Of a stretch of 64,000 nucleotides of DNA, positions 4,138-64,000 are shown one piece after another (positions within the stretch are counted from its first letter, which is position 1; every line of letters begins with the position of its first letter). Both the position numbers and the translations under genes were made by a program. The notes under the pieces were generated by a model. That model did not search any database. It saw only the letters and a list, made by a program, of their open reading frames with translations, and was not told the origin of the DNA. The stretch is from Escherichia coli (GTDB lineage Bacteria > Pseudomonadota > Gammaproteobacteria > Enterobacterales > Enterobacteriaceae): NCBI RefSeq assembly GCF_044324875.1, contig NZ_CP172185.1. One strand, given 5' to 3'.

Positions 4138-4148
4138 TGGATTTGCCC

Positions 4149-5054
4149 CTATATTTCCAGACACCTGTTATCACTTAACCCATTACTGGCTTGCTGCCGT
4201 AGATATTCCCGTGGCGAGCGATAACCCAGTGCACTATGCGGATGCCATTCGTTATAATGCTCGAACGCCTCTGCAAGGTTCTTTGCTGCCGTTAACCCGT
4301 CTGGTTTGGGCATGACACTGATGTAGTCACGCTTTATCGTTTTCACGAAGCTCTCTGCTATGCCGTTACTCTCCGGACTCCGCACCGCCGTGCTCTTCGG
4401 TTCAAGCCCCAACATCCGGGCAAACTGCCGTGTTTCATTAGCCCGGTAGCATGAACCATTATCCGTCAGCCACTCTACTGGAGACGCCGGAAGCTCGTTG
4501 CCGAAGCGGCGTTCCACCGCTCCCAGCATGACGTCCTGTACTGTTTCACTGTTGAAGCCGCCCGTAGTGACCGCCCAGTGCAGTGCCTCACGGTCACAGC
4601 AGTCCAGCGCGAACGTGACTCGCAGTTTTTCTCCGTTATCACAGCGGAACTCGAACCCGTCAGAGCACCATCGCTGATTACTTTCTTTCACAGCCACTCT
4701 GCCTGTATGTGCCCGTTTCGATGGCGGTACAGCAGGTTTTCGCTCAAGCAACAGCGCATTCTGGCGCATGATCCGGTAAACACGTTTGGCATTGATCGCA
4801 GGCATACCATCAAGTTCTGCCTGTCTGCGAAGCAGCGCCCATACCCGACGATAACCATACGTTGGCAGCTCTCCGATAACATGGTGTATACGGAGAAGCA
4901 CATCCGTATCATCAGTGTGACGACTGCGGCGGCCATCCATCCAGTCATCGGTTCGTCTGAGAATGACGTGCAACTGCGCACGCGACACCCGGAGACAACG
5001 GCTGACTAAGCTTACTCCCCATCCCCGGGCAATAAGGGCGCGTGCGCTATCCAC
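4149..5054 (-). CDS. insD: IS2 transposase OrfB (InsD), DDE integrase-like
   Basis: 301-aa ORF recognised as IS2 InsD; overlaps insC in the arrangement typical of IS3-family frameshift fusion. Confidence 0.9.
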
Positions 5055-5377
5055 TTTTTTGCCCGTCCATATTCAACGGCTTCTTTGAGGAGTTCATTTT
5101 CCATCGTTTTCTTGCCGAGCAGGCGCTGGAGTTCTTTAATCTGCTTCATGGCGGCAGCAAGTTCAGAGGCAGGAACAACCTGTTCTCCGGCGGCGACAGC
5201 AGTAAGACTTCCTTCCTGGTATTGCTTACGCCAGAGAAATAACTGGCTGGCTGCTACACCATGTTGCCGGGCAACGAGGGAGACCGTCATCCCCGGTTCA
5301 AAGCTCTGCTGAACAATTGCGATCTTTTCCTGTGTGGTACGCCGTCTGCGTTTCTCCGGCCCTAAGACATCAATCAT
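5012..5377 (-). CDS. insC: IS2 OrfA (InsC), HTH DNA-binding protein
   Basis: Frame beginning [40 protein letters not shown]…, 121 aa from the internal Met of ORF 5012..5422. Confidence 0.85.
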
Positions 5378-5468
5378 CTGTTCTCCAATGACTAGTCTAA
5401 AAACTAGTATTAAGACTATCACTTATTTAAGTGATACTGGTTGTCTGGAGATTCAGGGGGCCAGTCTA

Positions 5469-7004
5469 TTCAGTATCGAACTGATCAACGTTCACATCCA
5501 ATACACCACCGTTAGTTACGGTGATGGTATTGGCGTACAGGTTGTAATCAGCACCCCAACCTGTAGATTCGGTCAACGCAACAGTACTGTAGGAGTTAAT
5601 AGTCAGATGATCGGTATCAACGTAACCATCTTCACCAATGTTCAGCGAAGAACCGTTAGTTAAATCGATAGTATCTGAAGTTAATTTAGATTCCGAAACA
5701 TTAACCTGAGAAGCATTATTAACTGTCAAGGTATCAACGATGGAACGACCTGTAGTATCCCATTCAGAACCGTTGTTCAACGCTACGTTAAATACACCGC
5801 TCTGGAAGACCTTGTCATCAACAACACGTTTCCAGTCATTGTTTTCATATGTTGCATTAGGAGTAAGGCTGTTTGTAGCAACATCATACATTGCTGACGT
5901 TTCAGCAACGTTATAAATTGCCTGACCAACCCACTTGCTTCCGTTATCAAGAGTGAGGTTCAGTTCATCAACGTTGAGGCCATCATCAGTCCAACCACCG
6001 TTGGTATCTTTCAGCCCGTCACCGTTGGAATCATGACCATTCGGATCAAAATTACTATTCCAAGTGCTGTTAAATGCAACATCGCCCATCAGCGTTGAAT
6101 TGCTGAAGTATACGTTGTTCTTCATTGCATAGTCGGAACCTGAATCAGTGAAGGACATTGCAACATCTCCCGGACCGGTATAATCACTCGGTTCACTAGA
6201 GTTGCCAAAGTGTCCTGTTTTGACATAAGTATCGCTATCCAGAATAATGTCTGAACCAGAAGTCACTGTGGAATCTTTTACAGAGATATTGTTATCCCAA
6301 GTATGAGATTCGGTAGTATAAGTTTCGTTGTAAGTATTACCTTGAGATAATGCAATACCTGCAATGCGGGAGTTATTTGAAATATTGATGTTACTTTCTA
6401 CATCAAGATTAACAGCAACACCTTCACTGGTATCAAATGTCTCATTTGTGTGTTTGGTTACATCACCATCTTTATAAGAATCAGTGAAGTAAAACGCTTC
6501 ATAATCATCATCAATGGTAGTGTTAGCAATGTTAAGAGTGAAAACATCACCATCACGCCAGTTTGTGTCAACAACAGCATCAGTGTAAAAATCATATCCA
6601 ACCAGAAGATCACTATCTGCATCCAAACGATCATAATAACCGCCTGGCTTCAAAGAAGTAATCGAACCGTGAATCACTGAATTACTGATATCAAGCTGAT
6701 TAGCAGTACTGTCTGCATAATCATGGTTCAAATAATAGGTTGAGATCGTGCCGTTAACGGTATCGCCGTTAAAGGACTGATCGAAATCACCATTGGTGTT
6801 GTTGTAATAGACAAAACCACTATAGTTTACATAGTTGCCATCTACAGTGCCTGCCTTATCCATATGATCCCAATCAAGTGCAGTAACGGGATTGTCGTAA
6901 TAAGTCCAGGTGTCATAAGTAGTTGCATTAGCCTGAGAGGTGATAGCCAGAGTGCAAGCCAATGCTAATTGTGATACTACAAGTTTCTTTTTCCAGGAGT
7001 GCAT
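5469..7004 (-). pseudogene. yaiT: Autotransporter YaiT, N-terminal (signal peptide + passenger) fragment; stop lies inside the IS2 terminus
   Basis: ORF 5466..7004 starts MHSWKKKLVVSQLALACTLAITSQANA (signal peptide); Asn/Thr/Asp-rich passenger; terminates at a stop contributed by the IS2 end. Confidence 0.8.
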
Positions 7005-20339: not shown

Positions 20340-20445
<106 letters not shown>

Positions 20446-33475: not shown

Positions 33476-33483
33476 TGATCGCA

Positions 33484-34095
33484 ATGAACATGCCAATGAC
33501 CGAAAGAATAAAAGCAGGCAAGCTATTTACCGATATGTGCGAAGGCTTACCGGAAAAAAGACTTCGTGGGAAAACGTTAATGTATGAGTTTAATCACTCG
33601 CATCCATCAGAAGTTGAAAAAAGAGAAAGCCTGATTAAAGAAATGTTTGCCACGGTAGGGGAAAACGCCTGGGTAGAACCTCCCGTCTATTTCTCTTACG
33701 GTTCCAACATCCATATAGGCCGCAATTTTTATGCAAATTTTAATTTAACCATTGTCGATGACTACACGGTAACAATCGGTGATAACGTACTGATTGCACC
33801 CAACGTTACTCTTTCCGTTACGGGACACCCGGTACACCATGAATTAAGAAAAAACGGTGAGATGTACTCTTTTCCGATAACGATTGGCAATAACGTCTGG
33901 ATCGGAAGTCATGTGGTCATTAATCCAGGCGTCACCATCGGGGATAATTCTGTTATTGGCGCGGGTAGTGTCGTCACAAAAGACATTCCACCAAACGTCG
34001 TGGCTGCTGGCGTTCCTTGTCGGGTTATTCGCGAAATAAACGACCGGGATAAGCACTATTATTACAAAGATTATAAAGTTGAGCCTTCAGTTTAA
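33484..34095 (+). CDS. lacA: Galactoside O-acetyltransferase
   Basis: 203-aa frame from MNMPMTERIKAGKLFTDMCEGLPEKRL…; hexapeptide repeats. Confidence 0.97.
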   Translation: MNMPMTERIKAGKLFTDMCEGLPEKRLRGKTLMYEFNHSHPSEVEKRESLIKEMFATVGENAWVEPPVYFSYGSNIHIGRNFYANFNLTIVDDYTVTIGDNVLIAPNVTLSVTGHPVHHELRKNGEMYSFPITIGNNVWIGSHVVINPGVTIGDNSVIGAGSVVTKDIPPNVVAAGVPCRVIREINDRDKHYYYKDYKVEPSV

Positions 34096-40339: not shown

Positions 40340-41275
40340 AATTATCCACGGTTCAGGCCTGTGGGCATGATAAGACGCGTCAGCGTCGCATCAGGCATCT
40401 GCGCACGGTGTCGGATGCGGCGCGAGCGCCTTATCTGACCTACGGTTCAGACCTGTAGGCATGATAAGAGGCACCAGCGTCGCATCAGGCATCTGCGCAC
40501 GGTGTCGGATGCGGCGCGAGCGCCTTATCCGACCTACGGTTCAGGCCTGTAGGCATGATAAGACGCGCCAGCGTCGTATCAGGCATCTGCGCACGGTGTC
40601 GGATGCGGCGCGAGCGCCTTATCCGACCTACGGTTCAGGCCTGTAGGCATGATAAGACGCACCAGCGTCGCATCAGGCATCTGCGCACGGTGTCGGATGC
40701 GGCGCGAGCGCCTTATCCGACCTACGGTTCAGACCTGTAGGCATGATAAGACGCGCCAGCGTCGCATCAGGCATCTGCGCATGGTGTCGGATGCGGCGCG
40801 AGCGCCTTATCCGACCTACGGTTCAGGCCTGTAGGCATGATAAGACGCACCAGCGTCGCATCAGGCATCGGCGCACGGTGTCGGATGCGGCGCGAGCGCC
40901 TTATCCGACCTACGGTTCAGGCCTGTAGGCATGATAAGACGCGCCAGCGTCGTATCAGGCATCTGCGCACGGTGTCGGATGCGGCGCGAGCGCCTTATCC
41001 GACCTACGGTTCAGACCTGTAGGCATGATAAGACGCGCCAGCGTCGCATCAGGCATCGGCGCACGGTGTCGGATGCGGCGCGAGCGCCTTATCCGACCTA
41101 CGGTTCAGGCCTGTAGGCATGATAAGACGCGTCAGCGTCGCATCAGGCATCGGCGCACGGTGTCGGATGCGGCGCGAGCGCCTTATCCGACCTACGGTTC
41201 AGGCCTGTAGGCATGATAAGACGCGTCAGCGTCGCATCAGGCATCGGCGCACGGTGTCGGATGCGCCACACGACG
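40340..41275. repeat. Tandem REP/BIME array, about 10 copies of a 94-bp unit
   Basis: Unit GCCTGTAGGCATGATAAGACGCGCCAGCGTCGCATCAGGCATCTGCGCACGGTGTCGGATGCGGCGCGAGCGCCTTATCCGACCTACGGTTCAG recurs with exact 94-bp period; ORF-track starts at 40461, 40555, … 41119 are 94 bp apart. Each unit holds two inverted REP palindromes. Confidence 0.9.
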
Positions 41276-41289
41276 CATCCGACAATACC

Positions 41290-43176
41290 TTACTCTTCCA
41301 TCGCCTGGCGGATCTGATCCAACGACGCAGGATCATCAATGGTCGTCAGATCCCCAGGATCGCGTCCTTCGCAAATCGCCTGGATCGTGCGGCGCAGCAT
41401 TTTTCCGGATCGCGTTTTCGGCAATTGCGAGACAAACCAGACGTGCGCCGGGCGGCCAAAGTTGCCAATCTGGCTGTCCACCAGCGCCATAATCGCCTTC
41501 TCTTGCGAGTGCGCCACCTCACGGTCTTCCAGACTGTCGCTCTCTTTCGGAATGACAAACGCCACCGCCACCTGCCCTTTCAGCGCATCTTTCACCCCAA
41601 CCACCGCCACTTCGGCAACGCCCGGATGACTGGAGATACTCTCTTCAATCTCGCGCGTCCCCAGCCGATGCCCGGCAACGTTAATCACATCGTCAGTGCG
41701 CCCGAGAATAAAGTGATAACCGTCAGCATCGCGGATACCCCAGTCAAAAGTGGCGTACACCGGACGGGAAAACAGCGACCAGTACGTCTTCACAAAGCGG
41801 TCGTCGTCGCCCCAAATGGTCTGAATACACCCCGGCGGCAATGGCCCTTCCACCACCAGCATCCCTTTCTCGTTGACGCCACACGGTTCGCCGGTGACTT
41901 CATTAAGCAACTGCACGTTATAGCCATACATCGGCACGCCGGGGCTACCCAGACGCGTCGGCCTGTCGTCCAGACCGCGAGCAATCGCCATAATCGGCCA
42001 GCCGGATTCGGTCTGCCAGTAATTGTCGATCACTGGCACATCCAGCGTATTGCTCACCCAACTGGCGGTCGGCTCGTCCAGCGGTTCTCCAGCCAGATAG
42101 AGCACTTCCAGCGACGAGAGATCGTGTTTGCGAATTTCAGCGGTAGGGAATTTTTTCAGCACGCGAATGGCGGTCGGCGCTGAGAACATCCGGCTAACCT
42201 GATATTTCTCGACGATTTTCCACCACACGCCGCAGTCCGGCCAGGTCGGTAATCCTTCGTAAACGATAGTCGCCATCCCCGCCAGCAGCGGCGCGTAGAC
42301 GATATACGAATGCCCCACCACCCAGCCGATATCCGAAGCACAAAAGAACACACCGCCCGCTTTGCCGCCAAAAATGGTGTCCATCGAGGTCGCCAGCGCC
42401 ACCGCATATCCGCCAACGTCACGCTGCACGCCTTTAGGTTTGCCGGTCGTGCCGGAGGTGTAGAGAATGCAGGAGGTTTCGTTGGATTCCAGCCACGCCA
42501 CCGGTACCCGCGCGCCGATGTGTTGATGGCGCAACGACGCGAAATCGACATCCCGCCCGCTGACGCGTGCCATTTTCGCCAGCCCGCGATCCACCAGCAA
42601 AACATGGCGTGGCTGGTGCTGCGCCTGACTTATCGCATCGTCGAGCAATTTTTTATAGGGAATGATTTTGCCACCGCGCGCTCCGGCATCAGCCGAGACA
42701 ATCAGCACCGGTTTAGCATCATCAATTCGCGCCGCCACGCTGTGCGAGGCAAATCCCCCAAACACCACCGAGTGAATAGCGCCAATGCGCGCGCAAGCCA
42801 GCAGAGTAATATGTGCTTCGGCAATCATCGGCATATACACCAGCACCCGATCGCCGCGCTGCACACCCAGCGAGCGCAGCATTGAGGCCACCGCATTCAC
42901 TTCGTCATGTAACTGGCGGAAGGTAAAGGTGCGCTCTTCTTCTGTTTCCGAAGAGACGGCAATCAGCGCCAGCGCCTCTGGCTGTTTCTCCAGCCAGCGG
43001 TCGATAGCGTTGTGACACAAGTTGGTTCGGCCTTCACAAAACCAACGGGCAAACGGCGGATTGCTGTGATCGAGCGTTTGCGTAAAGGGCGTCTGCCAGT
43101 CAATACGCCGGGCCTGCTCGGCCCAGAACTTCTCCGGTTCGTTAATCGAACGCTGATAAAATTCGCTAAAAGACAT
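41290..43176 (-). CDS. prpE: Propionyl-CoA synthetase
   Basis: 628 aa; AMP-binding signature YTSGTTGKPKG. Confidence 0.95.
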   Translation of the reverse strand: MSFSEFYQRSINEPEKFWAEQARRIDWQTPFTQTLDHSNPPFARWFCEGRTNLCHNAIDRWLEKQPEALALIAVSSETEEERTFTFRQLHDEVNAVASMLRSLGVQRGDRVLVYMPMIAEAHITLLACARIGAIHSVVFGGFASHSVAARIDDAKPVLIVSADAGARGGKIIPYKKLLDDAISQAQHQPRHVLLVDRGLAKMARVSGRDVDFASLRHQHIGARVPVAWLESNETSCILYTSGTTGKPKGVQRDVGGYAVALATSMDTIFGGKAGGVFFCASDIGWVVGHSYIVYAPLLAGMATIVYEGLPTWPDCGVWWKIVEKYQVSRMFSAPTAIRVLKKFPTAEIRKHDLSSLEVLYLAGEPLDEPTASWVSNTLDVPVIDNYWQTESGWPIMAIARGLDDRPTRLGSPGVPMYGYNVQLLNEVTGEPCGVNEKGMLVVEGPLPPGCIQTIWGDDDRFVKTYWSLFSRPVYATFDWGIRDADGYHFILGRTDDVINVAGHRLGTREIEESISSHPGVAEVAVVGVKDALKGQVAVAFVIPKESDSLEDREVAHSQEKAIMALVDSQIGNFGRPAHVWFVSQLPKTRSGKMLRRTIQAICEGRDPGDLTTIDDPASLDQIRQAMEE

Positions 43177-43215
43177 AATGCTCTCCTGTTGAACTTACGC
43201 CTTACCGCTGTTTGC

Positions 43216-44667
43216 TTAAATGACGTACAGGTCGAGATACTCATTGACCGGCATCTGTTCCAGGCGAGCTCTGTCGAGAGAAACCTCCAGAATGCGCTGC
43301 TGTTGGCGAGTCGGGAACTGGCGCGCGAGATTGATTTTGAATTTATCGACCAGCTTCGGAATGCCATCCTGACGGCGGCGAGCATGACCAATTGGGTACT
43401 CCACCACCACTTCTTCAAATCGCGTACCGTCGGTGAACTCAAGGGTTATGGCATTGGCGATGGCACGTTTTTCCGGGTCGTGGTAGTCAGCGGTAAATGC
43501 CGGATCTTCAAAGCAATTGATCTTCTCGCGCAGGGCGTCGATGCGTTTATCTTGCGCAACGTTGTCCTCGTAATCTGCCGCCGTTAAGCGTCCGAACAGC
43601 AGCGGGATCGCCACCATGTACTGAATGCAGTGATCGCGGTCTGCCGGGTTATTGAGCGGTCCTTTTTTGTCGATGATGCGAATACAGGCTTCGTGGGTGC
43701 GAATGGTCACTTTTTCGATATCTGCCGCCGTTTTGCCTGCTGCCTGCATCTGTTCATAGAGCGTCATCGCTGCTTCAACTGCCGTCTGGGAGTGGAACTC
43801 CGCCGGGAAGGAGATTTTGAACAGCACATTTTCCATCACGTAAGAACCGTACGGGCGCTGGAAGCGGAACGACTCACCTTTGAAGGAGACGTCGTAGAAG
43901 CCCCACACAGGCGCAGTCAGGGCTGACGGGTAACCCATTTCGCCCGTTTTCGCCATCAGTGCCAGACGTACCGCGCGGGAAGTGGCATCGCCCGCCGCCC
44001 AGGATTTACGCGTGCCGGTGTTCGGCGCATGGCGATAGGTGCGCAGCGACTGACCGTCCACCCACGCCAGCGAAACGGCGTTGAGAATTTCCTCGCGGGT
44101 CAGGCCGAGCATTTCGGCGACCACGGCGGTGGAAGCCACTTTCACTAACAGAACGTGGTCGAGGCCGACGCGGTTAAAGGAGTTTTCCAGCGCGATGCAG
44201 CCCTGAATTTCATGGGCTTTGATCATTGCGGTCAGCACCTGTTTCATGGTCAACGGCGCTTTGCCGCTGGCGACCGCGTTGCGCGAAAGCCAGTCCGCCG
44301 TTGCCAGAATGCCGCCGAGGTTGTCGGAAGGATGGCCCCACTCCGCCGCCAGCCAGGTATCGTTGAAATCAAGCCAGCGGATCATCGCGCCAATGTTAAA
44401 TGCCGCCTGGACGGGGTCGAGCTGGAACTGAGTTCCGGGGACGCGCACGCCGTTAGGTACGACAGTGCCGGGGACAATTGGCCCCAGCAGTTTTTTACAG
44501 GCCGGGTATTCGAGAGCTTCAAGACCGCAGCCGAGAGTGTCGAGCAGGCAGTAATGTGCGGTGTCGTAGGCCACTTTAGAGCTAATTTCGTAGTTCATGA
44601 CGTAATCGACGATATCAACGATTTCACGATCAAATTCCGGGCGGATGTTGTTGATTTGAGCTGACAT
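43216..44667 (-). CDS. prpD: 2-methylcitrate dehydratase
   Basis: 483-aa ORF recognised as PrpD. Confidence 0.95.
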
Positions 44668-44700
44668 TGGGTACGTTTCCTTATTGTTATTCGTAGAGGT

Positions 44701-45870
44701 TTACTGGCGCTTATCCAGCGCGACAAACTGGCGGTCTTCCGGTCCAACATAATTGGCGGAAGGACGGATAATTTTGTTGTCCTGACGTTGTTCGATAATG
44801 TGCGCCGCCCAGCCGGTGACGCGGGCGATAACAAACAGTGGGGTGAACATCTCGGTGGGAACGCCCATCATGTTGTAGGAAACAGCGGAGAACCAGTCGA
44901 GATTGGGGAACATCTTTTTGCTCTCCCACATCACCGTTTCCAGGCGATCGGCGATGTTGTACATCTTCAGCGAACCGCCTTCCTGCGAGAGCTGCTTCGC
45001 CACGCGTTTGATCACCTGATGACGCGGGTCGGCGATGGTGTAAACCGGATGACCAAAACCAATGACCACTTCTCTGTTTTCCACGCGCTTGCGGATATCG
45101 GCTTCGGCTTCGTCCGGCGTTTCGTAGCGTTGTTGGATCTCCAGCGACACTTCATTCGCCCCGCCGTGTTTCGGCCCGCGCAGTGCGCCAATCGCGCCAA
45201 TAATCGCGGAATACATATCAGAGCCGGTGCCCGCAATCACCCGGCTGGTAAAGGTGGAGGCGTTAAACTCGTGTTCGGCGTACAGCACCAGCGAAATATG
45301 CATCGCCTTTTCCCAGCTTTGCGACGGCTTTTCGCCATGCAGCAGATGCAGGAAGTGACCGCCGATGGAGTCGTCATCGGTTTCTGGCTGGATGCGTTCG
45401 CCGTTGTGGCTGTAGTGATACCAGTAGAGAAGAATCGAGCTAAGCGACGCCAACAGTTTGTCGGCAATATCCCGCGCGCCAGAGACAGTGTGCCCTTCTT
45501 TTTCTGGCAGCGTGCAACCGAGTGCGGAAACGCCTGTGCGCATGACATCCATCGGGTGCGACGCCGCCGGTAAGGCTTCCAGCACGGTACGCACGTTAGC
45601 CGGTAAACCGCGCAGGGCTTTCAGTTTTGTTTTGTAAGCGGCGAGTTCGTCACGGGTCGGCAGTTTGCCGTGGATCAGCAGATGCGCCACTTCTTCAAAT
45701 TCGCAATGTTCCGCCAGATCAATAATATCGTAACCACGGTAATGCAAGTCATTGCCACTTTTACCCACGGTGCAGAGCGCCGTATTGCCCGCCGGAACGC
45801 CAGAAAGTGCCACAGATTTTTTCGGTTTAATGACATGGGTACTGTTTTGCAGGATCGTTGTGTCGCTCAT
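44701..45870 (-). CDS. prpC: 2-methylcitrate synthase
   Basis: 389 aa; citrate-synthase family. Confidence 0.95.
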
Positions 45871-45889
45871 ATTGTCCTCGTCATTGTTA

Positions 45890-46390
45890 TCATTTGTAGG
45901 GTCGAGATTGTTGTCGGATGCGACGCTATGCGTCTTATCCGACCTACAGTTCAGTTCACCCCGCAGGCCTGATAAGCCGCGTCAGCGTCGCATCAGGCAT
46001 CGGTTGTCGGATGCGACGCCATGCGTCTTATCCGACCTACAGTTCAGTTCACCCCGTAGGCCTGATAAGTCGCGTCAGCGGCGCATCAGGCATCGGTTGT
46101 CGGATGCGACGCCATACGTCTTATCCGACCTACAGTTCAGCACGCCCCGTAGGCCTGATAAGCCGCGTCAGCGGCGCATCAGGCATCGGTTGTCGGATGC
46201 GACGCTATGCGTCTTATCCGACCTACAGTTCAGTTCACCCCGTAGGCCTGATAAGCCGCGTCAGCGGCGCATCAGGCATCGGTTGTCGGATGCGACGCTA
46301 TGCGTCTTATCCGACCTACAGTTCAGTTCATCCCGTAGGCCTGATAAGCCGCGTCAGCGGCGCATCAGGCATCGGTTGTCGAATACAACC
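45890..46390. repeat. Tandem REP/BIME array, about 5 copies of a ~95-bp unit, between prpC and prpB
   Basis: Repeated GTCGGATGCGACGC…CTTATCCGACCTACAGTTCAG…GGCCTGATAAGCCGCGTCAGCG…CATCAGGCATCGGTT; ORF-track peptides repeat with about 32-aa period. Confidence 0.85.
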
Positions 46391-46402
46391 AACGGGCGTT
46401 TT

Positions 46403-47293
46403 TTATTTCGCCTGGCTACGGGCAAACAGGTCGTCGAGCTTCTCTTCGTACTGGTAATAGTTGATGCTTTCGTACAGTTCGTTGCGGGTCTGCATGGTGT
46501 CGATGACGCTTTTCTGCGTGCCTTCCTGACGCAGGACGTTGTAGACATGTTCGGCGGCGCGGTTCATGGCGCGAAACGCTGAAAGCGGGTACAGCGCCAT
46601 TGCAACATGGGCACTGCGTAATTCATCGGTAGTAAACAGCGGTGTTGCGCCAAATTCGGTAATGTTGGCGAGGATTGGCACCTGCACCGCATCGGCAAAC
46701 TGGCGGTACATAGCGAGTTCGGTAATCGCCTCCGGGAACAACATCTCGGCACCCGCTTCAACATAGGCCCGCGCACGCTCGATCGCCGCATCCAGCCCTT
46801 CAACCGCCAGCGCATCGGTGCGCGCCATGATCACAAAATCAGGATCGGTTTTCGCATCCACCGCCGCGCGGATCCGATCCACCATCTCCTCTTTCGAGAC
46901 GATCGCTTTATTCGGGCGATGGCCGCAGCGTTTCGCACCAACCTGATCTTCAATATGCAATCCCGCCGCACCGGCTTTAATCATCGATTTCACGGTGCGC
47001 GCAACGTTAAAAGCAGAAGAACCAAAACCGATATCCGCATCTACCAGCAGCGGCAGCGAGCAGACGTCGGTGATACGGCGAATGTCGGTCAGCACGTCAT
47101 CAAGGGTAGAAATACCGAGATCGGGCAGCCCCAGCGAACCTGCCGCCACGCCACCGCCGGAAAGATAAATCGCCTGATATCCGGCACGCTGCGCCAACAG
47201 CGCATGGTTAGCGTTGATGGTGCCAACAATCTGCAATGGATTTTCTTTAGTCAGTGCAGCGCGAAACGCTTTACCTGGAGAGTGTAGAGACAT
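46403..47293 (-). CDS. prpB: 2-methylisocitrate lyase
   Basis: 296 aa; PEP-mutase/isocitrate-lyase family. Confidence 0.95.
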
Positions 47294-47340
47294 AGCCCAT
47301 CCTTTGTTATCAACTTGTTATTTGCGTTAATAAAGACAAA

Positions 47341-47356
47341 GCAAGGGGTGTGCCAC
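47341..47356 (-). promoter_or_regulatory. Sigma-54 (-24/-12) promoter for prpBCDE
   Basis: Reverse strand reads G-TGGCAC-ACCCC-TTGC (GG and GC with canonical spacing), about 45 bp upstream of the prpB start, facing prpB. Confidence 0.8.
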
Positions 47357-47531
47357 AATTGCCTGAATAAAATTAAATGTTTTATTTCAATTTGTTAGAG
47401 ATAAAGTCATGAAGTAATCCGCAAATATGCGTTTCAGTTAACGTTTCAGGCAATGTTTCACCGCGTTTCATTGCAACAATTATGAAACAAGACTAAACCC
47501 AATATTCAGTTTCTTAACTTTGCGGTGCGCT

Positions 47532-49118
47532 ATGGCACATCCACCACGGCTGAATGACGACAAACCGGTTATCTGGACGGTATCGGTGACGCGCCTGTTC
47601 GAGCTGTTTCGCGATATCAGCCTCGAGTTTGATCATCTGGCGAACATTACCCCTATCCAGCTTGGCTTTGAAAAAGCGGTGACCTACATCCGCAAGAAAC
47701 TGGCAAGCGAACGCTGTGACGCCATCATCGCTGCTGGCTCTAACGGCGCATATCTTAAAAGCCGCCTGTCAGTGCCAGTTATTTTGATTAAACCGAGCGG
47801 CTACGATGTGTTGCAGGCACTGGCAAAAGCCGGAAAACTCACCTCTTCTATCGGCGTTGTCACTTATCAGGAAACCATTCCAGCGCTGGTGGCGTTTCAA
47901 AAAACCTTTAATTTGCGCCTCGACCAACGTAGCTACATTACAGAGGAAGACGCACGCGGGCAGATTAACGAGCTGAAAGCTAACGGCACCGAAGCGGTGG
48001 TCGGCGCAGGGCTGATTACCGATTTGGCAGAAGAAGCCGGAATGACCGGAATTTTTATCTATTCCGCCGCCACCGTGCGCCAGGCATTCAGCGATGCGCT
48101 GGATATGACGCGCATGTCGTTACGCCATAACACTCACGATGCCACCCGTAACGCCCTGCGTACTCGTTACGTGCTGGGCGATATGCTCGGTCAATCACCA
48201 CAGATGGAACAGGTACGGCAGACTATTTTGCTGTATGCCCGCTCCAGTGCAGCGGTGTTGATTGAAGGGGAAACGGGGACGGGCAAAGAGCTGGCGGCCC
48301 AGGCGATTCATCGGGAATATTTTGCCCGCCACGATGCGCGACAGGGCAAAAAGTCACATCCGTTTGTTGCCGTCAACTGCGGGGCGATTGCCGAATCGCT
48401 GCTGGAGGCAGAGCTGTTTGGCTATGAGGAAGGGGCGTTTACCGGCTCGCGACGCGGAGGTCGCGCCGGGCTGTTCGAAATCGCCCACGGTGGTACGCTG
48501 TTTCTGGATGAGATTGGCGAAATGCCGCTACCTTTGCAGACTCGCCTGTTACGGGTGCTGGAAGAAAAAGAGGTCACCCGCGTCGGCGGGCATCAGCCTG
48601 TTCCGGTGGATGTGCGAGTCATTAGCGCCACTCACTGCAATCTGGAAGAAGATATGCGGCAAGGGCAGTTTCGCCGTGATCTGTTTTATCGGCTGAGTAT
48701 TTTGCGTCTGCAATTGCCACCACTGCGCGAGCGGGTGACGGATATTCTGCCGCTGGCGGAAAGCTTTTTGAAAGTGTCTCTGGCGGCGCTCTCCGCCCCG
48801 TTTTCTGCCGCATTACGCCAGGGATTACAGGCAAGCGAAACCGTGCTGGTGCACTACGACTGGCCGGGCAATATTCGTGAACTGCGCAATATGATGGAGC
48901 GACTGGCGCTGTTTTTAAGTGTGGAACCGACGCCGGATTTAACGCCGCAATTTTTGCAGCTGCTACTGCCGGAACTGGCGCGCGAGTCGGCGAAAATTCC
49001 CGCCCCATCCTTGCTGACACCACTACAGGCACTGGAGAAATTTAATGGCGATAAAACAGCAGCGGCGAATTATTTAGGCATCAGCCGGACGACGTTCTGG
49101 CGGCGGCTGAAAAGCTGA
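47532..49118 (+). CDS. prpR: Sigma-54-dependent activator of the prp operon
   Basis: 528-aa frame from [15 protein letters not shown]…; AAA+ sigma54-interaction motif [12 protein letters not shown]-terminal HTH. Confidence 0.95.
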
Positions 49119-59679: not shown

Positions 59680-60160
59680 AATTCCCTCCGTAGGTTTGGC
59701 TCAGCGCACAACCATCGGCCATGCCATACAGCATGTCGCAGCCGGAACTGGAGCCAATATGTTTAATTTTTTCTATTGCCTGGGTTGAATTCCCAGGGAC
59801 ACCATAAATAATATCGTGAATAAAATGATGAATATTTTCCCGGCAGCGTTGTTGTAATGCGGCTTCCAGCGTTATGGCACTTAATAACGTGGTATTATTT
59901 CTGCCGCGTTGCAGACCGATATAAAATTCCTCTTTGTATTTTTCCGCCGGATGTCCGGAAATAAATAAAATAAGCGCCAGACCTGTTAAATAATCATCGG
60001 CTGATGGCGTAAGGCCAATCCCTAACCCCATCATACTGGCGACCGCTAAGGCGATATTTTTTTTATCGTTTACTTCCTGAATAACTGCCCGTCGTTTAAT
60101 ATGTAATTCTTTATTTAACGCCTGATAAAACGGATTATCGCCGCGATAATTAAACAGGGT
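59669..60160 (-). pseudogene. yahE: YahE-like (DUF2877) gene, 3' portion only; 5' end replaced by IS1
   Basis: Frame stays open without a start codon from the IS1 boundary at 60160 down to the stop at 59669 (…TLFNYRGDNPFYQALNKELHIKRRAVIQEV…MMGLGIG…); overlaps the yahF start. Confidence 0.65.
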
Positions 60161-60175
60161 GGTAATGACTCCAAC

Positions 60176-60679
60176 TTATTGATAGTGTTTTATGTTCAGA
60201 TAATGCCCGATGACTTTGTCATGCAGCTCCACCGATTTTGAGAACGACAGCGACTTCCGTCCCAGCCGTGCCAGGTGCTGCCTCAGATTCAGGTTATGCC
60301 GCTCAATTCGCTGCGTATATCGCTTGCTGATTACGTGCAGCTTTCCCTTCAGGCGGGATTCATACAGTGGCCAGCCATCCGTCATCCATATCACCACGTC
60401 AAAGGGTGACAGCAGGCTCATAAGACGCCCCAGCGTCGCCATAGTGCGTTCACCGAATACGTGCGCAACAACCGTCTTCCGGAGCCTGTCATACGCGTAA
60501 AACAGCCAGCGCTGGCGCGATTTAGCCCCGACATAGCCCCACTGTTCGTCCATTTCCGCGCAGACGATGACGTCACTGCCCGGCTGTATGCGCGAGGTTA
60601 CCGACTGCGGCCTGAGTTTTTTAAGTGACGTAAAATCGTGTTGAGGCCAACGCCCATAATGCGGGCAGTTGCCCGGCAT
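60176..60679 (-). CDS. insB: IS1 InsB (transposase C-terminal frame)
   Basis: 167-aa ORF recognised as IS1 InsB. Confidence 0.9.
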
Positions 60680-60873
60680 CCAACGCCATTCATGGCCATA
60701 TCAATGATTTTCTGGTGCGTACCGGGTTGAGAAGCGGTGTAAGTGAACTGCAGTTGCCATGTTTTACGGCAGTGAGAGCAGAGATAGCGCTGATGTCCGG
60801 CGGTGCTTTTGCCGTTACGCACCACCCCGTCAGTAGCTGAACAGGAGGGACAGCTGATAGAAACAGAAGCCAC
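60598..60873 (-). CDS. insA: IS1 InsA (transposition repressor)
   Basis: 91-aa [46 protein letters not shown]…. Confidence 0.92.
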
Positions 60874-60928
60874 TGGAGCACCTCAAAAACACCATCATAC
60901 ACTAAATCAGTAAGTTGGCAGCATCACC

Positions 60929-61270
60929 AGAGATTTACCAACTGCTGAAGCGGAAATATCTCGCGTGCAGGCGTCTATTATCAAATGGTATGCGTCAGAA
61001 TACCATAATGGCAGGCAAGTTCTCGATGAGATACAAACGCCTTCAGCAATTAACAGTGAGCTTTATACAAAAATGATATATCTGACCAGGAACTGGTCAT
61101 TGTATCCGAACGGTGATGGCTGTGTAACTATAAGCTCACCAGAAATAAAAAATAAATACCCTGCTGCCATTTGCCTGGCTCTGGGATTTTTTCTAAGCTT
61201 TGTAATTTCTGTAATGTTTTGCCTTGTCAAAAAAATGGTAGATGAATACCAACAAAACTCTGGGCAGTAA
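60929..61270 (+). pseudogene. 3' fragment of a membrane-protein gene (ykgH-like by position), 5' end replaced by IS1
   Basis: Frame open with no stop from the IS1 junction at 60929 to the stop at 61270; C-terminal hydrophobic helix (AAICLALGFFLSFVISVMFCLV). Confidence 0.4.
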
Positions 61271-61512
61271 TAAACAGCATTCTGATAGAGAGTGCCTGTA
61301 TAAAGCTGAAGTGACAATGACCGGGAAGGGAACCCGTTTTCAGGAATGGATGCCTGTCTTTTTCACTGTAAATATCCTGGCATTACTAATGCCAGGATAT
61401 TTACAGAAGAGCAGCATAACCATGACGGAACGGGGTTAAGTCAGGTTGTCCTTAACGCTATTCACAACCTCGTATGCCGACTTCAGGTTTATGTCCAGAC
61501 TTCATATCTCTC

Positions 61513-62208
61513 TCAGCAATCCTCAATAATCAGATACACCGCTTTCACCGGGCCATGAACCCCGACGACTTTGATAAGCTCAATATCCGCCGTTGAACTA
61601 GGGCCGCTAATGATGTTAATGCAGGACGGCATTCGTTCACCGGCCTGCGCTTTCTGATGCAATTTTTCTGCGAGTTGCGCTACACGCGGCAGGATTGTGC
61701 TTTTACGCAGGATAAAAAGAGAAGATTCCGGGAGCAGGCTCAATGAACGCCCGCGCCCGGCGGCGGAAAAAAGAACCACGCCTCCCGATTCGGTTAAACC
61801 ATATTCAGCATACACGACACCCACTTTAGCCTGCTCTGCTTGTGATATGTTCTCAATACCTTTCGCCGGATCCCAAACAACGGCATTGCATTCCTGCTGC
61901 AAACGTTCGCTAATCCCCAATTCCTCCAGCCTCGTGTCACCGCTAATCACGACCGACTGATCTCCCAGCTCTTTACACAGACGTATTGCAGCTTCTGCCG
62001 CCTTCGCCTCGCTGGTCAGTTCACAGCGCGTCAACATAACATCGCTGGCAAACTGAATAAACGCGTCACAACGCTGCTGTTGGGTAAGTTGGGTAAGCCG
62101 CTCGTTAGCATAGTTGTTAAGCGGCGCATCTTCTGCTTGCGGTTCAAGTCGCAGCGGGCGACCCAGTGCCTGAGCAACGTTATTCAAAAATTCGCTCCGA
62201 TTATCCAT
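61513..62208 (-). CDS. ykgG: LutC-like lactate-utilisation protein
   Basis: 231-aa frame from MDNRSEFLNNVAQALGRPL…; start 2 bp from the ykgF stop. Confidence 0.85.
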   Translation of the reverse strand: MDNRSEFLNNVAQALGRPLRLEPQAEDAPLNNYANERLTQLTQQQRCDAFIQFASDVMLTRCELTSEAKAAEAAIRLCKELGDQSVVISGDTRLEELGISERLQQECNAVVWDPAKGIENISQAEQAKVGVVYAEYGLTESGGVVLFSAAGRGRSLSLLPESSLFILRKSTILPRVAQLAEKLHQKAQAGERMPSCINIISGPSSTADIELIKVVGVHGPVKAVYLIIEDC

Positions 62209-63628
62209 TCTTTTTCTCCTGCGCCTGATGTTTCTTAAACCAACTACGGAAACTCTCTCCGTCAGCTTCAGGAAGATCGCGTGCTTCCATCCAGTCGCTA
62301 ATCGCGCCAAATTTGAGTGGTGTTTTGCCGCCATTGATAAACCAGCTTGCCGCATGAGCACCAGCCATCATCCCGACTTTCCACAATCCTGGATGACTAT
62401 TGGCATAAGCGAACATTTTTATCGCCCGTTGCTCTGCTTTTGCGGTGATCCCTTTTTCAGCCATCACCCGACGATGACGCAAAATCAGTTTTGACAGCGG
62501 AATACGCACCGGACACACGCTGTCACAAGCGGTGCATAAAGAGCAGGCGTAGGGTAAATCTTTAAAATCTTTATAGCCGCCAAGTAGCGGAGAAATCACC
62601 GCACCAATTGGCCCTGGATAAATAGAGCCATATCCATGACCGCCAATATGGCGATATGCCGGACAAGTATTCATACAAGCCCCGCAGCGAATACAGCGCA
62701 GCACATCCCGAAATTCAGAGGCCAGCACCTCAGAACGCCCGTTATCGACAATAACCAGATGAAACTCTTCAGGACCATCAACGTGCCCCGCTTCGCGCGG
62801 TCCTGTCAGCCAGGTGTTGTATCCCGTCAAACGTGCACCAACGGCACTGCGCGCCAGCATGGTGATCAATACATCTACCTCGGCAAACGTGGGGGCAATA
62901 CGCTCCATTCCCATCACTGCAATATGCGTTTTAGGCAGCGTGGTACACATTCGCGCATTACCTTCATTGGTCACCAGGCATACCGAACCGGTCTCTGCCA
63001 CCGCGAAATTACAGCCGGTAATACCTATTTCAGCACTGAGGAAATCTTCGCGGATTTTTTGCCGGATGAATAAGGTCATTGCTTCAGGCGTTTCCGACCC
63101 CTCATAGCCCAGACGTTCGTGTAGCACCCGACGGATCTGATGGCGATCTTTATGAATTGCCGGGACCACAACATGAGAGGGCGGATCTTGATCCAGCTGG
63201 AGAATGTATTCACCCAGATCGGTTTCAATCACCTGAATGCCAGCATCCTGCAACACATGATTGACACCAATCTCTTCGGTCACCATCGATTTAGATTTCA
63301 CCACCTTCCGGGCATTTTTGCGTTGGGCAACCTGTAAAATGTAGCGAGTGGCGTCTTCTTTAGTTTTTGCAAAATAGACGTGACCGCCGTTTTGCGTCAC
63401 TTTTTCTGAGAGCTGGTACAGATAAGCGTCGAGATTACTCAGAACATGATCACGTATCTGGGCGGCCCGATCGCGCCACTCCTCCCAGTGCCCCAATTCA
63501 TCGACCATTTTTTGCCGATTTGCCCCGATACGCTGCTGCGCGTTTGCCACCGCTTTGCGCATGATCGGATCTTCAATTTGCTGACGGATGCGTGTCTTAA
63601 AATCTGTATTACTGGTTTTGATCGACAT
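62201..63628 (-). CDS. ykgF: LutB-like iron-sulfur protein (4Fe-4S ferredoxin-type)
   Basis: 475 aa; Cys clusters CIRCGACMNTCP and CSLCTACDSVCP. Confidence 0.9.
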   Translation of the reverse strand: MSIKTSNTDFKTRIRQQIEDPIMRKAVANAQQRIGANRQKMVDELGHWEEWRDRAAQIRDHVLSNLDAYLYQLSEKVTQNGGHVYFAKTKEDATRYILQVAQRKNARKVVKSKSMVTEEIGVNHVLQDAGIQVIETDLGEYILQLDQDPPSHVVVPAIHKDRHQIRRVLHERLGYEGSETPEAMTLFIRQKIREDFLSAEIGITGCNFAVAETGSVCLVTNEGNARMCTTLPKTHIAVMGMERIAPTFAEVDVLITMLARSAVGARLTGYNTWLTGPREAGHVDGPEEFHLVIVDNGRSEVLASEFRDVLRCIRCGACMNTCPAYRHIGGHGYGSIYPGPIGAVISPLLGGYKDFKDLPYACSLCTACDSVCPVRIPLSKLILRHRRVMAEKGITAKAEQRAIKMFAYANSHPGLWKVGMMAGAHAASWFINGGKTPLKFGAISDWMEARDLPEADGESFRSWFKKHQAQEKKNG

Positions 63629-63638
63629 CTTTATATCC

Positions 63639-64000
63639 TCAGCGGCTCATCAGCACTTCAGCAATATGCATTACTTTGACTTTCTGCCCTTCCCGTTGTA
63701 ATCGCCCACTGATGTTCAGCAGGCAACTCACGTCAGCACCAATTAAATACTCAGGGCGGACTTCCATCAGGTGCGCAACCTTTTCTTTCACCATCTCGCC
63801 GGATATTTCGGCCATTTTGACCGAGAACGTGCCGCCAAATCCGCAGCAGGTATCCTGTTCAGCAAAGGTCAACAGCTCCAGTCCACGCACATTTTTCAGC
63901 AGCATAAGTGGCTCGTCCTTCCCCCCCAGCTTACGGGCCAGGCTACAAGATGGGTGATACACCGCTCTCCCTTGCAAACTGGCACCTACATCGACTACCC
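63639..64000 (-). CDS. ykgE: LutA-like Cys-rich (CCG-domain) protein, 3' part; gene continues past window end
   Basis: C-terminal 112+ residues with CCGFGG motif; frame open to position 64000. Confidence 0.8.
   Translation of the reverse strand, partial: VVDVGASLQGRAVYHPSCSLARKLGGKDEPLMLLKNVRGLELLTFAEQDTCCGFGGTFSVKMAEISGEMVKEKVAHLMEVRPEYLIGADVSCLLNISGRLQREGQKVKVMHIAEVLMSR

Follow-up and report, generated by a model that had tools for sequence, protein, structure and literature searches.

The window, that is, the whole 64,000-nucleotide stretch of Escherichia coli DNA that was analysed, carries the prpBCDE operon on its minus strand (41290–47293) and the divergently encoded regulatory gene prpR on its plus strand (47532–49118; 528 amino acid residues). 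The four operon genes, prpB (methylisocitrate lyase PrpB; 46403–47293), prpC (44701–45870), prpD (43216–44667), and prpE (41290–43176), were each assigned by NCBIfam equivalog models, all above cutoff, and prpR was assigned by the NCBIfam PrpR equivalogs, at 1006 and 881 bits. The RefSeq annotation of the near-identical strain 042 has the same prpBCDE gene order. Between the start codons of prpB (ATG at 47293–47291, minus strand) and prpR (ATG at 47532, plus strand) lies a gap of 238 bp, 47294–47531, within which the minus strand reads aattgTGGCACaccccTTGCtttg. A sequence-only reading of this DNA had given precisely these limits for the prpR–prpB divergent region; they are exact, and the genes on both sides match their equivalog models.

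PrpR has the Pfam domains PrpR_N (PF06506, 1.2e-51) and Sigma54_activat (PF00158, 1.5e-65) and a C-terminal HTH_8 domain (PF02954, 1.6e-10); an AAA-lid domain was also found. A Walker A motif, GETGTGK, is at residue 246, and the GAFTGS motif, which had been ascribed to the divergently encoded PrpR before any domain search, is formed by residues 301–306. Judged by its sequence, the protein is a sigma-54 enhancer-binding protein with the PrpR-type set of domains.

Two of the spaces in and beside the operon are filled with repeats. The prpB–prpC spacer, 532 bp long, is filled by a tandem array at 45910–46381 in which a REP/BIME-like unit of 93 bp is repeated 5.1 times with 96% matching. In the strain 042 RefSeq annotation, a 179-residue “hypothetical protein” runs over the array in antisense (corresponding to window positions 45918–46457, plus strand); this open reading frame over a REP/BIME-like array is probably spurious. 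The prpE–codB interval, 40348–41265, holds 9.8 copies of a 94-bp REP-like unit. This second array is 918 bp in the window versus 448 bp in strain 042, where it is about half as long, so that the copy number varies between strains. Farther away, a 1.3-kb IS2 element (TnpA, TnpB) at 4139–5469, absent from strain 042, interrupts an autotransporter gene adjoining hemB. Collinearity with strain 042 stops at 60160, and the segment from 60160 to 64000 has an IS1 transposase open reading frame (60176–60679) followed by lutB/ykgF-like genes. This arrangement suggests that an IS1-associated deletion or rearrangement removed the yahD-to-bet region.

Within the prpB–prpR gap, a sigma-54 core promoter sequence, TGGCAC-ACCCC-TTGC, occupies 47341–47355 on the minus strand; the match is exact, and its matrix score is 15.0 bits. 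The sequence-only reading had placed TGGCAC-N5-TTGC on the reverse strand at 47341–47356. The motif and the strand are borne out, and the end is to be moved to 47355, position 47356 adding one flanking G. That G is the first base of the extended 17-mer GTGGCACACCCCTTGCT, which covers 47340–47356 of the minus strand. The GG of the −24 element is at 47354–47353, and the GC of the −12 element is at 47342–47341. The two doublets are one helical turn apart, and the core is followed by a T (TTGCT), as is characteristic of sigma-54 promoters. Sigma-54 promoters are directional. It follows from the minus-strand position of TGGCAC-N5-TTGC that transcription proceeds toward prpB and away from prpR. The earlier proposal that the promoter faces prpB therefore agrees with the strand of the exact motif and with a predicted start 36 nt upstream of the prpB ATG, a suitable orientation and distance.

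The transcription start was placed by the rule of PMC4591121. The predicted +1 is 47329 (minus strand), 12 nt downstream of the −12 C and 19 nt from the motif centre; the base there is T in the window and C in K-12. The predicted 5′ leader of prpB, 47294–47329 (minus strand), is 36 nt long, equal to the published “distance 36” for K-12 prpB, and it contains a ribosome-binding site, AAGGA, at 47304–47300. A perfect IHF consensus, TATCAACTTGTTA, is found on the plus strand within the predicted leader, at 47308–47320, extending from about +9 to +21 with its centre at +15. The 17-mer around it, TAACAAGTTGATAACAA (47305–47321; about +7 to +23), does not vary among E. coli, E. albertii, and Citrobacter, and only part of it is conserved in a Salmonella-type sequence. 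RNA structure was considered as the reason for the conservation of this leader 17-mer and was rejected, as the leader folds less stably than shuffled sequences (z = +1.4 for the window and +0.6 for K-12).

Upstream of the core promoter is a cluster of five GTTTCA/TGAAAC half-sites within 58 bp, 47431–47488, where 0.04 are expected (Poisson P ~1e-9). The cluster is centred at −105 to −157 with respect to the predicted start at 47329, a position appropriate for an upstream enhancer, and it may be divided into two candidate PrpR enhancers, both given here on the minus strand. The promoter-proximal candidate, UAS-2 (47429–47460; −105 to −129), has three TGAAAC half-sites 12 bp apart, which on the prpB-sense strand are at 47431–47436, 47443–47448, and 47455–47460. 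The promoter-distal candidate, UAS-1 (47463–47489; −139 to −157), is an inverted repeat, GTTTCAT-N10-ATGAAAC. The repeat sits within TGTTTCATAATTGTTGCAATGAAACG, a block that E. coli shares with E. albertii, Citrobacter, and the Salmonella-type sequence at every position except one, which is A or T and lies in the spacer.

Table 1 of PMC4987338 gives the published PrpR enhancer consensus as CGTTTCATGAAACG, citing Palacios and Escalante-Semerena 2004; the five hexamers of the E. coli cluster agree with it as half-sites. UAS-2 aligns with a CGTTTCATGAAACG palindrome that is perfect in Citrobacter and in the Salmonella-type sequence; at the aligned position in E. coli and E. albertii, the right half alone remains. 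A search of the E. coli gap for the perfect CGTTTCATGAAACG palindrome found none, the best matches having three mismatches. Since the perfect palindrome is absent in E. coli, we infer PrpR binding there from the half-sites and the alignment, and the choice of half-sites that PrpR would occupy is likewise a prediction.

The reported weakness of the E. coli promoter might be connected with the lack of a perfect CGTTTCATGAAACG in E. coli and E. albertii; PMC5566544 reports for the Salmonella-derived pPro system a strength about 3-fold that of its E. coli counterpart. A speculative and rather unlikely extension is that the tandem TGAAAC half-sites of Escherichia, with their spacing of 10–12 bp, replace the lost palindrome and, together with the IHF-consensus block of the leader, represent a lineage-specific rewiring, that is, either another mode of PrpR assembly or a site for IHF or another protein downstream of the start. 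If this were true, the altered PrpR assembly or the downstream protein site might explain the ~3-fold weaker E. coli promoter.

The AT-rich stretch between the enhancer and the promoter contains a candidate IHF bending site, TTTCAATTTGTTA, at 47385–47397 (plus strand), with one mismatch to WATCAANNNNTTR and its centre at about −62. Such a spacer position is typical of IHF-assisted sigma-54 promoters. The putative IHF site is kept in E. albertii and is not alignable in Citrobacter or the Salmonella-type sequence.

The conservation of these elements was studied through PrpR itself. A PrpR search with one genome per species gave at least 15 loci encoding full-length orthologues, and their upstream regions were aligned and scanned. 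Among the matches listed, 11 other PrpR-encoding loci have a sigma-54 element of 14.4–19.1 bits on the strand that points away from prpR, as follows: E. albertii, two Citrobacter, two Photorhabdus, Rugamonas, an Oxalobacteraceae MAG, Herbaspirillum, two further Burkholderiales, and Xanthomonas massiliensis. In those of the loci whose start codon could be called, transcription is predicted to begin about 29–48 nt ahead of prpB; in Herbaspirillum, the gene that follows is acnD-like. Four loci from Massilia and Janthinobacterium, also among the matches listed, have a prpR whose neighbour is not a prp gene. No element scoring above 5.2 bits is found in these four, which are a natural negative control. 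In Massilia glaciei, inserted transporter genes separate prpB from prpR, and prpB has its own TGGCAC-N5-TTGC (positions 75–89 of locus L007, minus strand), preceded by GTTTCA repeats. That prpB keeps both the element and the repeats indicates that promoter and enhancer stay with prpB and not with prpR.

The pairing of the two elements can also be expressed as a density. The comparison covered 12 sequences that carry a sigma-54 element, namely the window and the 11 loci among the matches listed. Their 200-bp stretches upstream of −24 together contain 42 GTTTCA half-sites in 2,385 bp, and the remaining sequence contains 7 in 25,793 bp, a 65-fold difference in density. The enrichment of half-sites upstream of orthologous sigma-54 elements means that promoter and enhancer travel together, and this co-conservation is seen across genera. 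At closer range, comparison of E. coli with E. albertii, Citrobacter, and the Salmonella-type sequence shows no change in TGGCA or TTGCT; the spacer that joins enhancer and promoter has diverged, with indels. The Salmonella-type sequence was found by a metagenome scan with the published 18-mer, and its organism label is accordingly a presumption.

Of 5426 complete E. coli genomes, 5218 have the gap, at 90–100% identity, and RefSeq has no annotated feature on it. An exceptional arrangement occurs in E. coli SCPM-O-B-9504 (NZ_CP144930; L085), in which two IS1 copies and an inversion split the gap at about 47334, downstream of the −12 element and short of the predicted +1. There, prpR is truncated and prpB is cut off from its promoter, a natural promoter knockout.

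The sigma-54 occupancy in K-12, the dependence on rpoN, prpR, and ihf, and the role of 2-methylcitrate as co-activator in Salmonella are taken from the literature. Bonocora et al. 2015 (PMC4591121, Table 1) list a sigma-54 ChIP-seq site in E. coli K-12, OS01, with a peak at 347850 and a fold above threshold of 17. The motif reported for OS01, GTGGCACACCCCTTGCT, has its centre at 347851 (plus strand); prpB lies downstream, with a predicted start 36 nt away (PMC4591121). This K-12 17-mer is identical to the one in the window, and its centre is at NC_000913.3 348627, which becomes 347851 after subtracting 776 bp. We take 776 bp to be the offset between two MG1655 sequence versions, and the exact agreement of the converted centre with 347851 supports it. 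A gSELEX experiment in vitro with reconstituted RpoN holoenzyme also gave a peak in the prpR/prpB spacer of K-12, at 347864 (PMC8743547).

In Salmonella provided with a promiscuous activator, expression of prpBCDE was 45-fold higher in the wild type than with rpoN deleted, and the operon was one of four classed experimentally as sigma-54-dependent, with TGGCATAGCCTTTGCTTT as its ChIP-chip site (PMC3844500). Two reviews (PMC5566544, PMC4987338) ascribe to Palacios and Escalante-Semerena 2000 a requirement of Salmonella prpBCDE for rpoN, prpR, and IHF, and they name 2-methylcitrate as required alongside sigma-54, IHF, and PrpR. In Xanthomonas oryzae, PrpR with RpoN controls prpBC (PMC8657755).

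How far the motif could be a functionless chance match of a short degenerate sequence in an AT-rich intergenic region was assessed by comparison with shuffled sequence. The exact 15-mer TGGCAC-N5-TTGC occurs once in the 64-kb window, where 0.36 matches are expected, and it is present in 32 of 100 shuffles; matches with one mismatch number 7, with 7.8 expected. With prpB left out, Bonocora et al. (PMC4591121) list 41 “intergenic sense” motifs from sigma-54 ChIP-seq, and a 17-position weight matrix was built from these. In a scan with this matrix, which had been proposed as a check of the original reading, the prpB-facing element takes second place in the window with its 15.0 bits and lies near the median of true sites (15.85; range 8.6–21.6). 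The mean maximum score of shuffled windows is, for comparison, 16.3; most of their maxima exceed the score of the element, and 133 of 200 reach or exceed the top score of the window, 15.26. The motif by itself is thus not above chance across the 128 kb searched. Given that neither the motif nor the matrix score has window-wide significance, the case for the element depends on its position and its conservation. For the strand of the 238-bp gap that faces prpB, the expected number of matches of such quality is about 0.00086. Conservation in related loci shows that the element is not a chance match: TGGCA and TTGCT are unchanged across genera where the flanking spacer is not, and, among the matches listed, 11 distant loci have an equivalent element that the four controls lack. 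Moreover, the identical K-12 sequence is bound by sigma-54 both in vivo and in vitro (PMC4591121, PMC8743547). An origin by chance is effectively refuted.

The best matrix score in the window, 15.3 bits, belongs to TTGGCATGTTCATTGCG at 33480–33496 (minus strand), in the lacY/lacZ area. As this site goes unmentioned in the main text of the sigma-54 ChIP-seq paper (PMC4591121), we treat it as probably a chance match. The sequence TGGGCATACAAAATGCA at 20428–20444 (plus strand) is identical to the ChIP-seq site OA01 of Bonocora et al., classed as “intergenic antisense” in the mhp region. This makes it a second published sigma-54 binding site in the window, one that has no obvious target gene.

The remaining alternatives accept the element and question its use. 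Sigma-54 might bind without the site being a productive prpB promoter, prpB being transcribed from another one, for example, a CRP-dependent sigma-70 promoter. Many of the 135 E. coli sigma-54 ChIP-seq sites may indeed be transcriptionally inert, and Bonocora et al. speak of a “binding site” and not of a “promoter”, function being unproven at many sites (PMC4591121). The E. coli prpB promoter had the EcoCyc status “P” (predicted) in a 2015 comparison (PMC4591121), and we found no experimentally mapped E. coli prpB start in the literature. CRP, furthermore, is reported in PMC5566544, citing Lee et al. 2005, to act on both prp promoters, and directly on that of prpB. Against this reading, a consensus scan of 47200–47650 found no sigma-70-like promoter; the scan thus offers no support for an alternative prpB promoter, and it did not locate the prpR promoter either. 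The CRP consensus TGTGA-N6-TCACA has no match in the gap at three or fewer mismatches, and the CRP site of Lee et al. 2005 was accordingly not located by this search. The 45-fold dependence of Salmonella prpBCDE on rpoN (PMC3844500), together with the rpoN requirement given in PMC5566544, speaks for a productive promoter, as does the fixed distance of the −24/−12 element from prpB and its conservation alongside the PrpR enhancer in both gamma- and beta-proteobacteria. An unproductive site is therefore very unlikely. There is next to no likelihood that the element serves prpR autoregulation and not prpB. The divergent region is shared by the two genes, and the K-12 RefSeq record names PrpR a “dual regulator”; the minus-strand motif nevertheless directs transcription toward prpB, and the prpR promoter is described in PMC5566544 as propionate-independent and CRP-activated.

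The element is almost certainly PprpB, the sigma-54 (RpoN)-dependent promoter of the prpBCDE operon of the 2-methylcitrate cycle. Established knowledge of enhancer-binding proteins and the work with Salmonella, from which the ligand, looping, and ATPase steps are drawn, suggest that it would act as follows. Sigma-54 RNA polymerase bound to the −24 GG and −12 GC (47341–47355, minus strand) would form a stable closed complex that does not open by itself. PrpR would bind the GTTTCA/TGAAAC cluster at 47429–47489, about 105–157 bp upstream of the predicted start. The PrpR_N domain would sense 2-methylcitrate, made from propionate by PrpE and PrpC, so that inhibition is relieved and PrpR oligomerises. 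Bending of the AT-rich spacer by IHF may then form a DNA loop that brings PrpR to the polymerase, where the GAFTGS loops would contact sigma-54, and ATP hydrolysis by the AAA+ ring would open the promoter. Transcription would begin near 47329, 36 nt ahead of the prpB ATG, the exact +1 being a prediction.

The control of the locus can be explained in these terms: propionate would give rise to 2-methylcitrate, which would render PrpR active, and PrpR would open an otherwise silent sigma-54 promoter. The regulatory logic proposed in the sequence-only reading holds, as the locus has the sigma-54 element, the divergent prpR, and a 17-mer whose identical K-12 counterpart is bound by sigma-54. The pPro propionate-inducible expression vectors, like propionate biosensors, are based on the pair formed by PprpB and PrpR. 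PprpB was already known; here it is real, conserved, and correctly read, and also ordinary, and its confirmation in this DNA adds nothing new to biology.

The closest comparison is with the K-12 prpB promoter, which shares with the window the identical GTGGCACACCCCTTGCT, the 36-nt distance, the 238-bp gap, and all the PrpR half-sites; 233 of the 238 gap bases are identical. The window belongs to a strain other than K-12, and the five differences are single-base changes, one of them on the predicted +1 and none in the −24/−12 element or the half-sites. In strain 042, the gap is 100% identical to that of the window, the rest of which matches at 98–99%. The Salmonella-type sequence has the same divergent gene layout, with the core TGGCAT-AGCCT-TTGC and a leader of about 37 nt. 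Its distal enhancer, TGTTTCATAA(T/A)TGTTGCAATGAAACG, equals the E. coli block but for one spacer position. The proximal enhancer differs more, since the palindrome of Salmonella and Citrobacter, (C/G)GTTTCATGAAACG, is perfect over 14 bp, whereas E. coli and E. albertii have its right half and extra tandem TGAAAC half-sites. The spacer between enhancer and promoter is 20–30 bp longer in Salmonella and Citrobacter than in E. coli and is not alignable.

Among other sigma-54 promoters, the atoD core, CTGGCACTCCCCTTGCT, differs from that of prpB at just 2 of 17 positions. Other E. coli promoters that depend on enhancer-binding proteins, such as those of atoD, glnA, pspA, and norV, have in common with PprpB the −24/−12 element, a divergent or adjacent activator gene, an enhancer 80–160 bp upstream, and an AT-rich spacer of the IHF type. 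In contrast to these, the prp system alone has the PrpR_N sensor, with 2-methylcitrate as its ligand, and an enhancer of the GTTTCA type.
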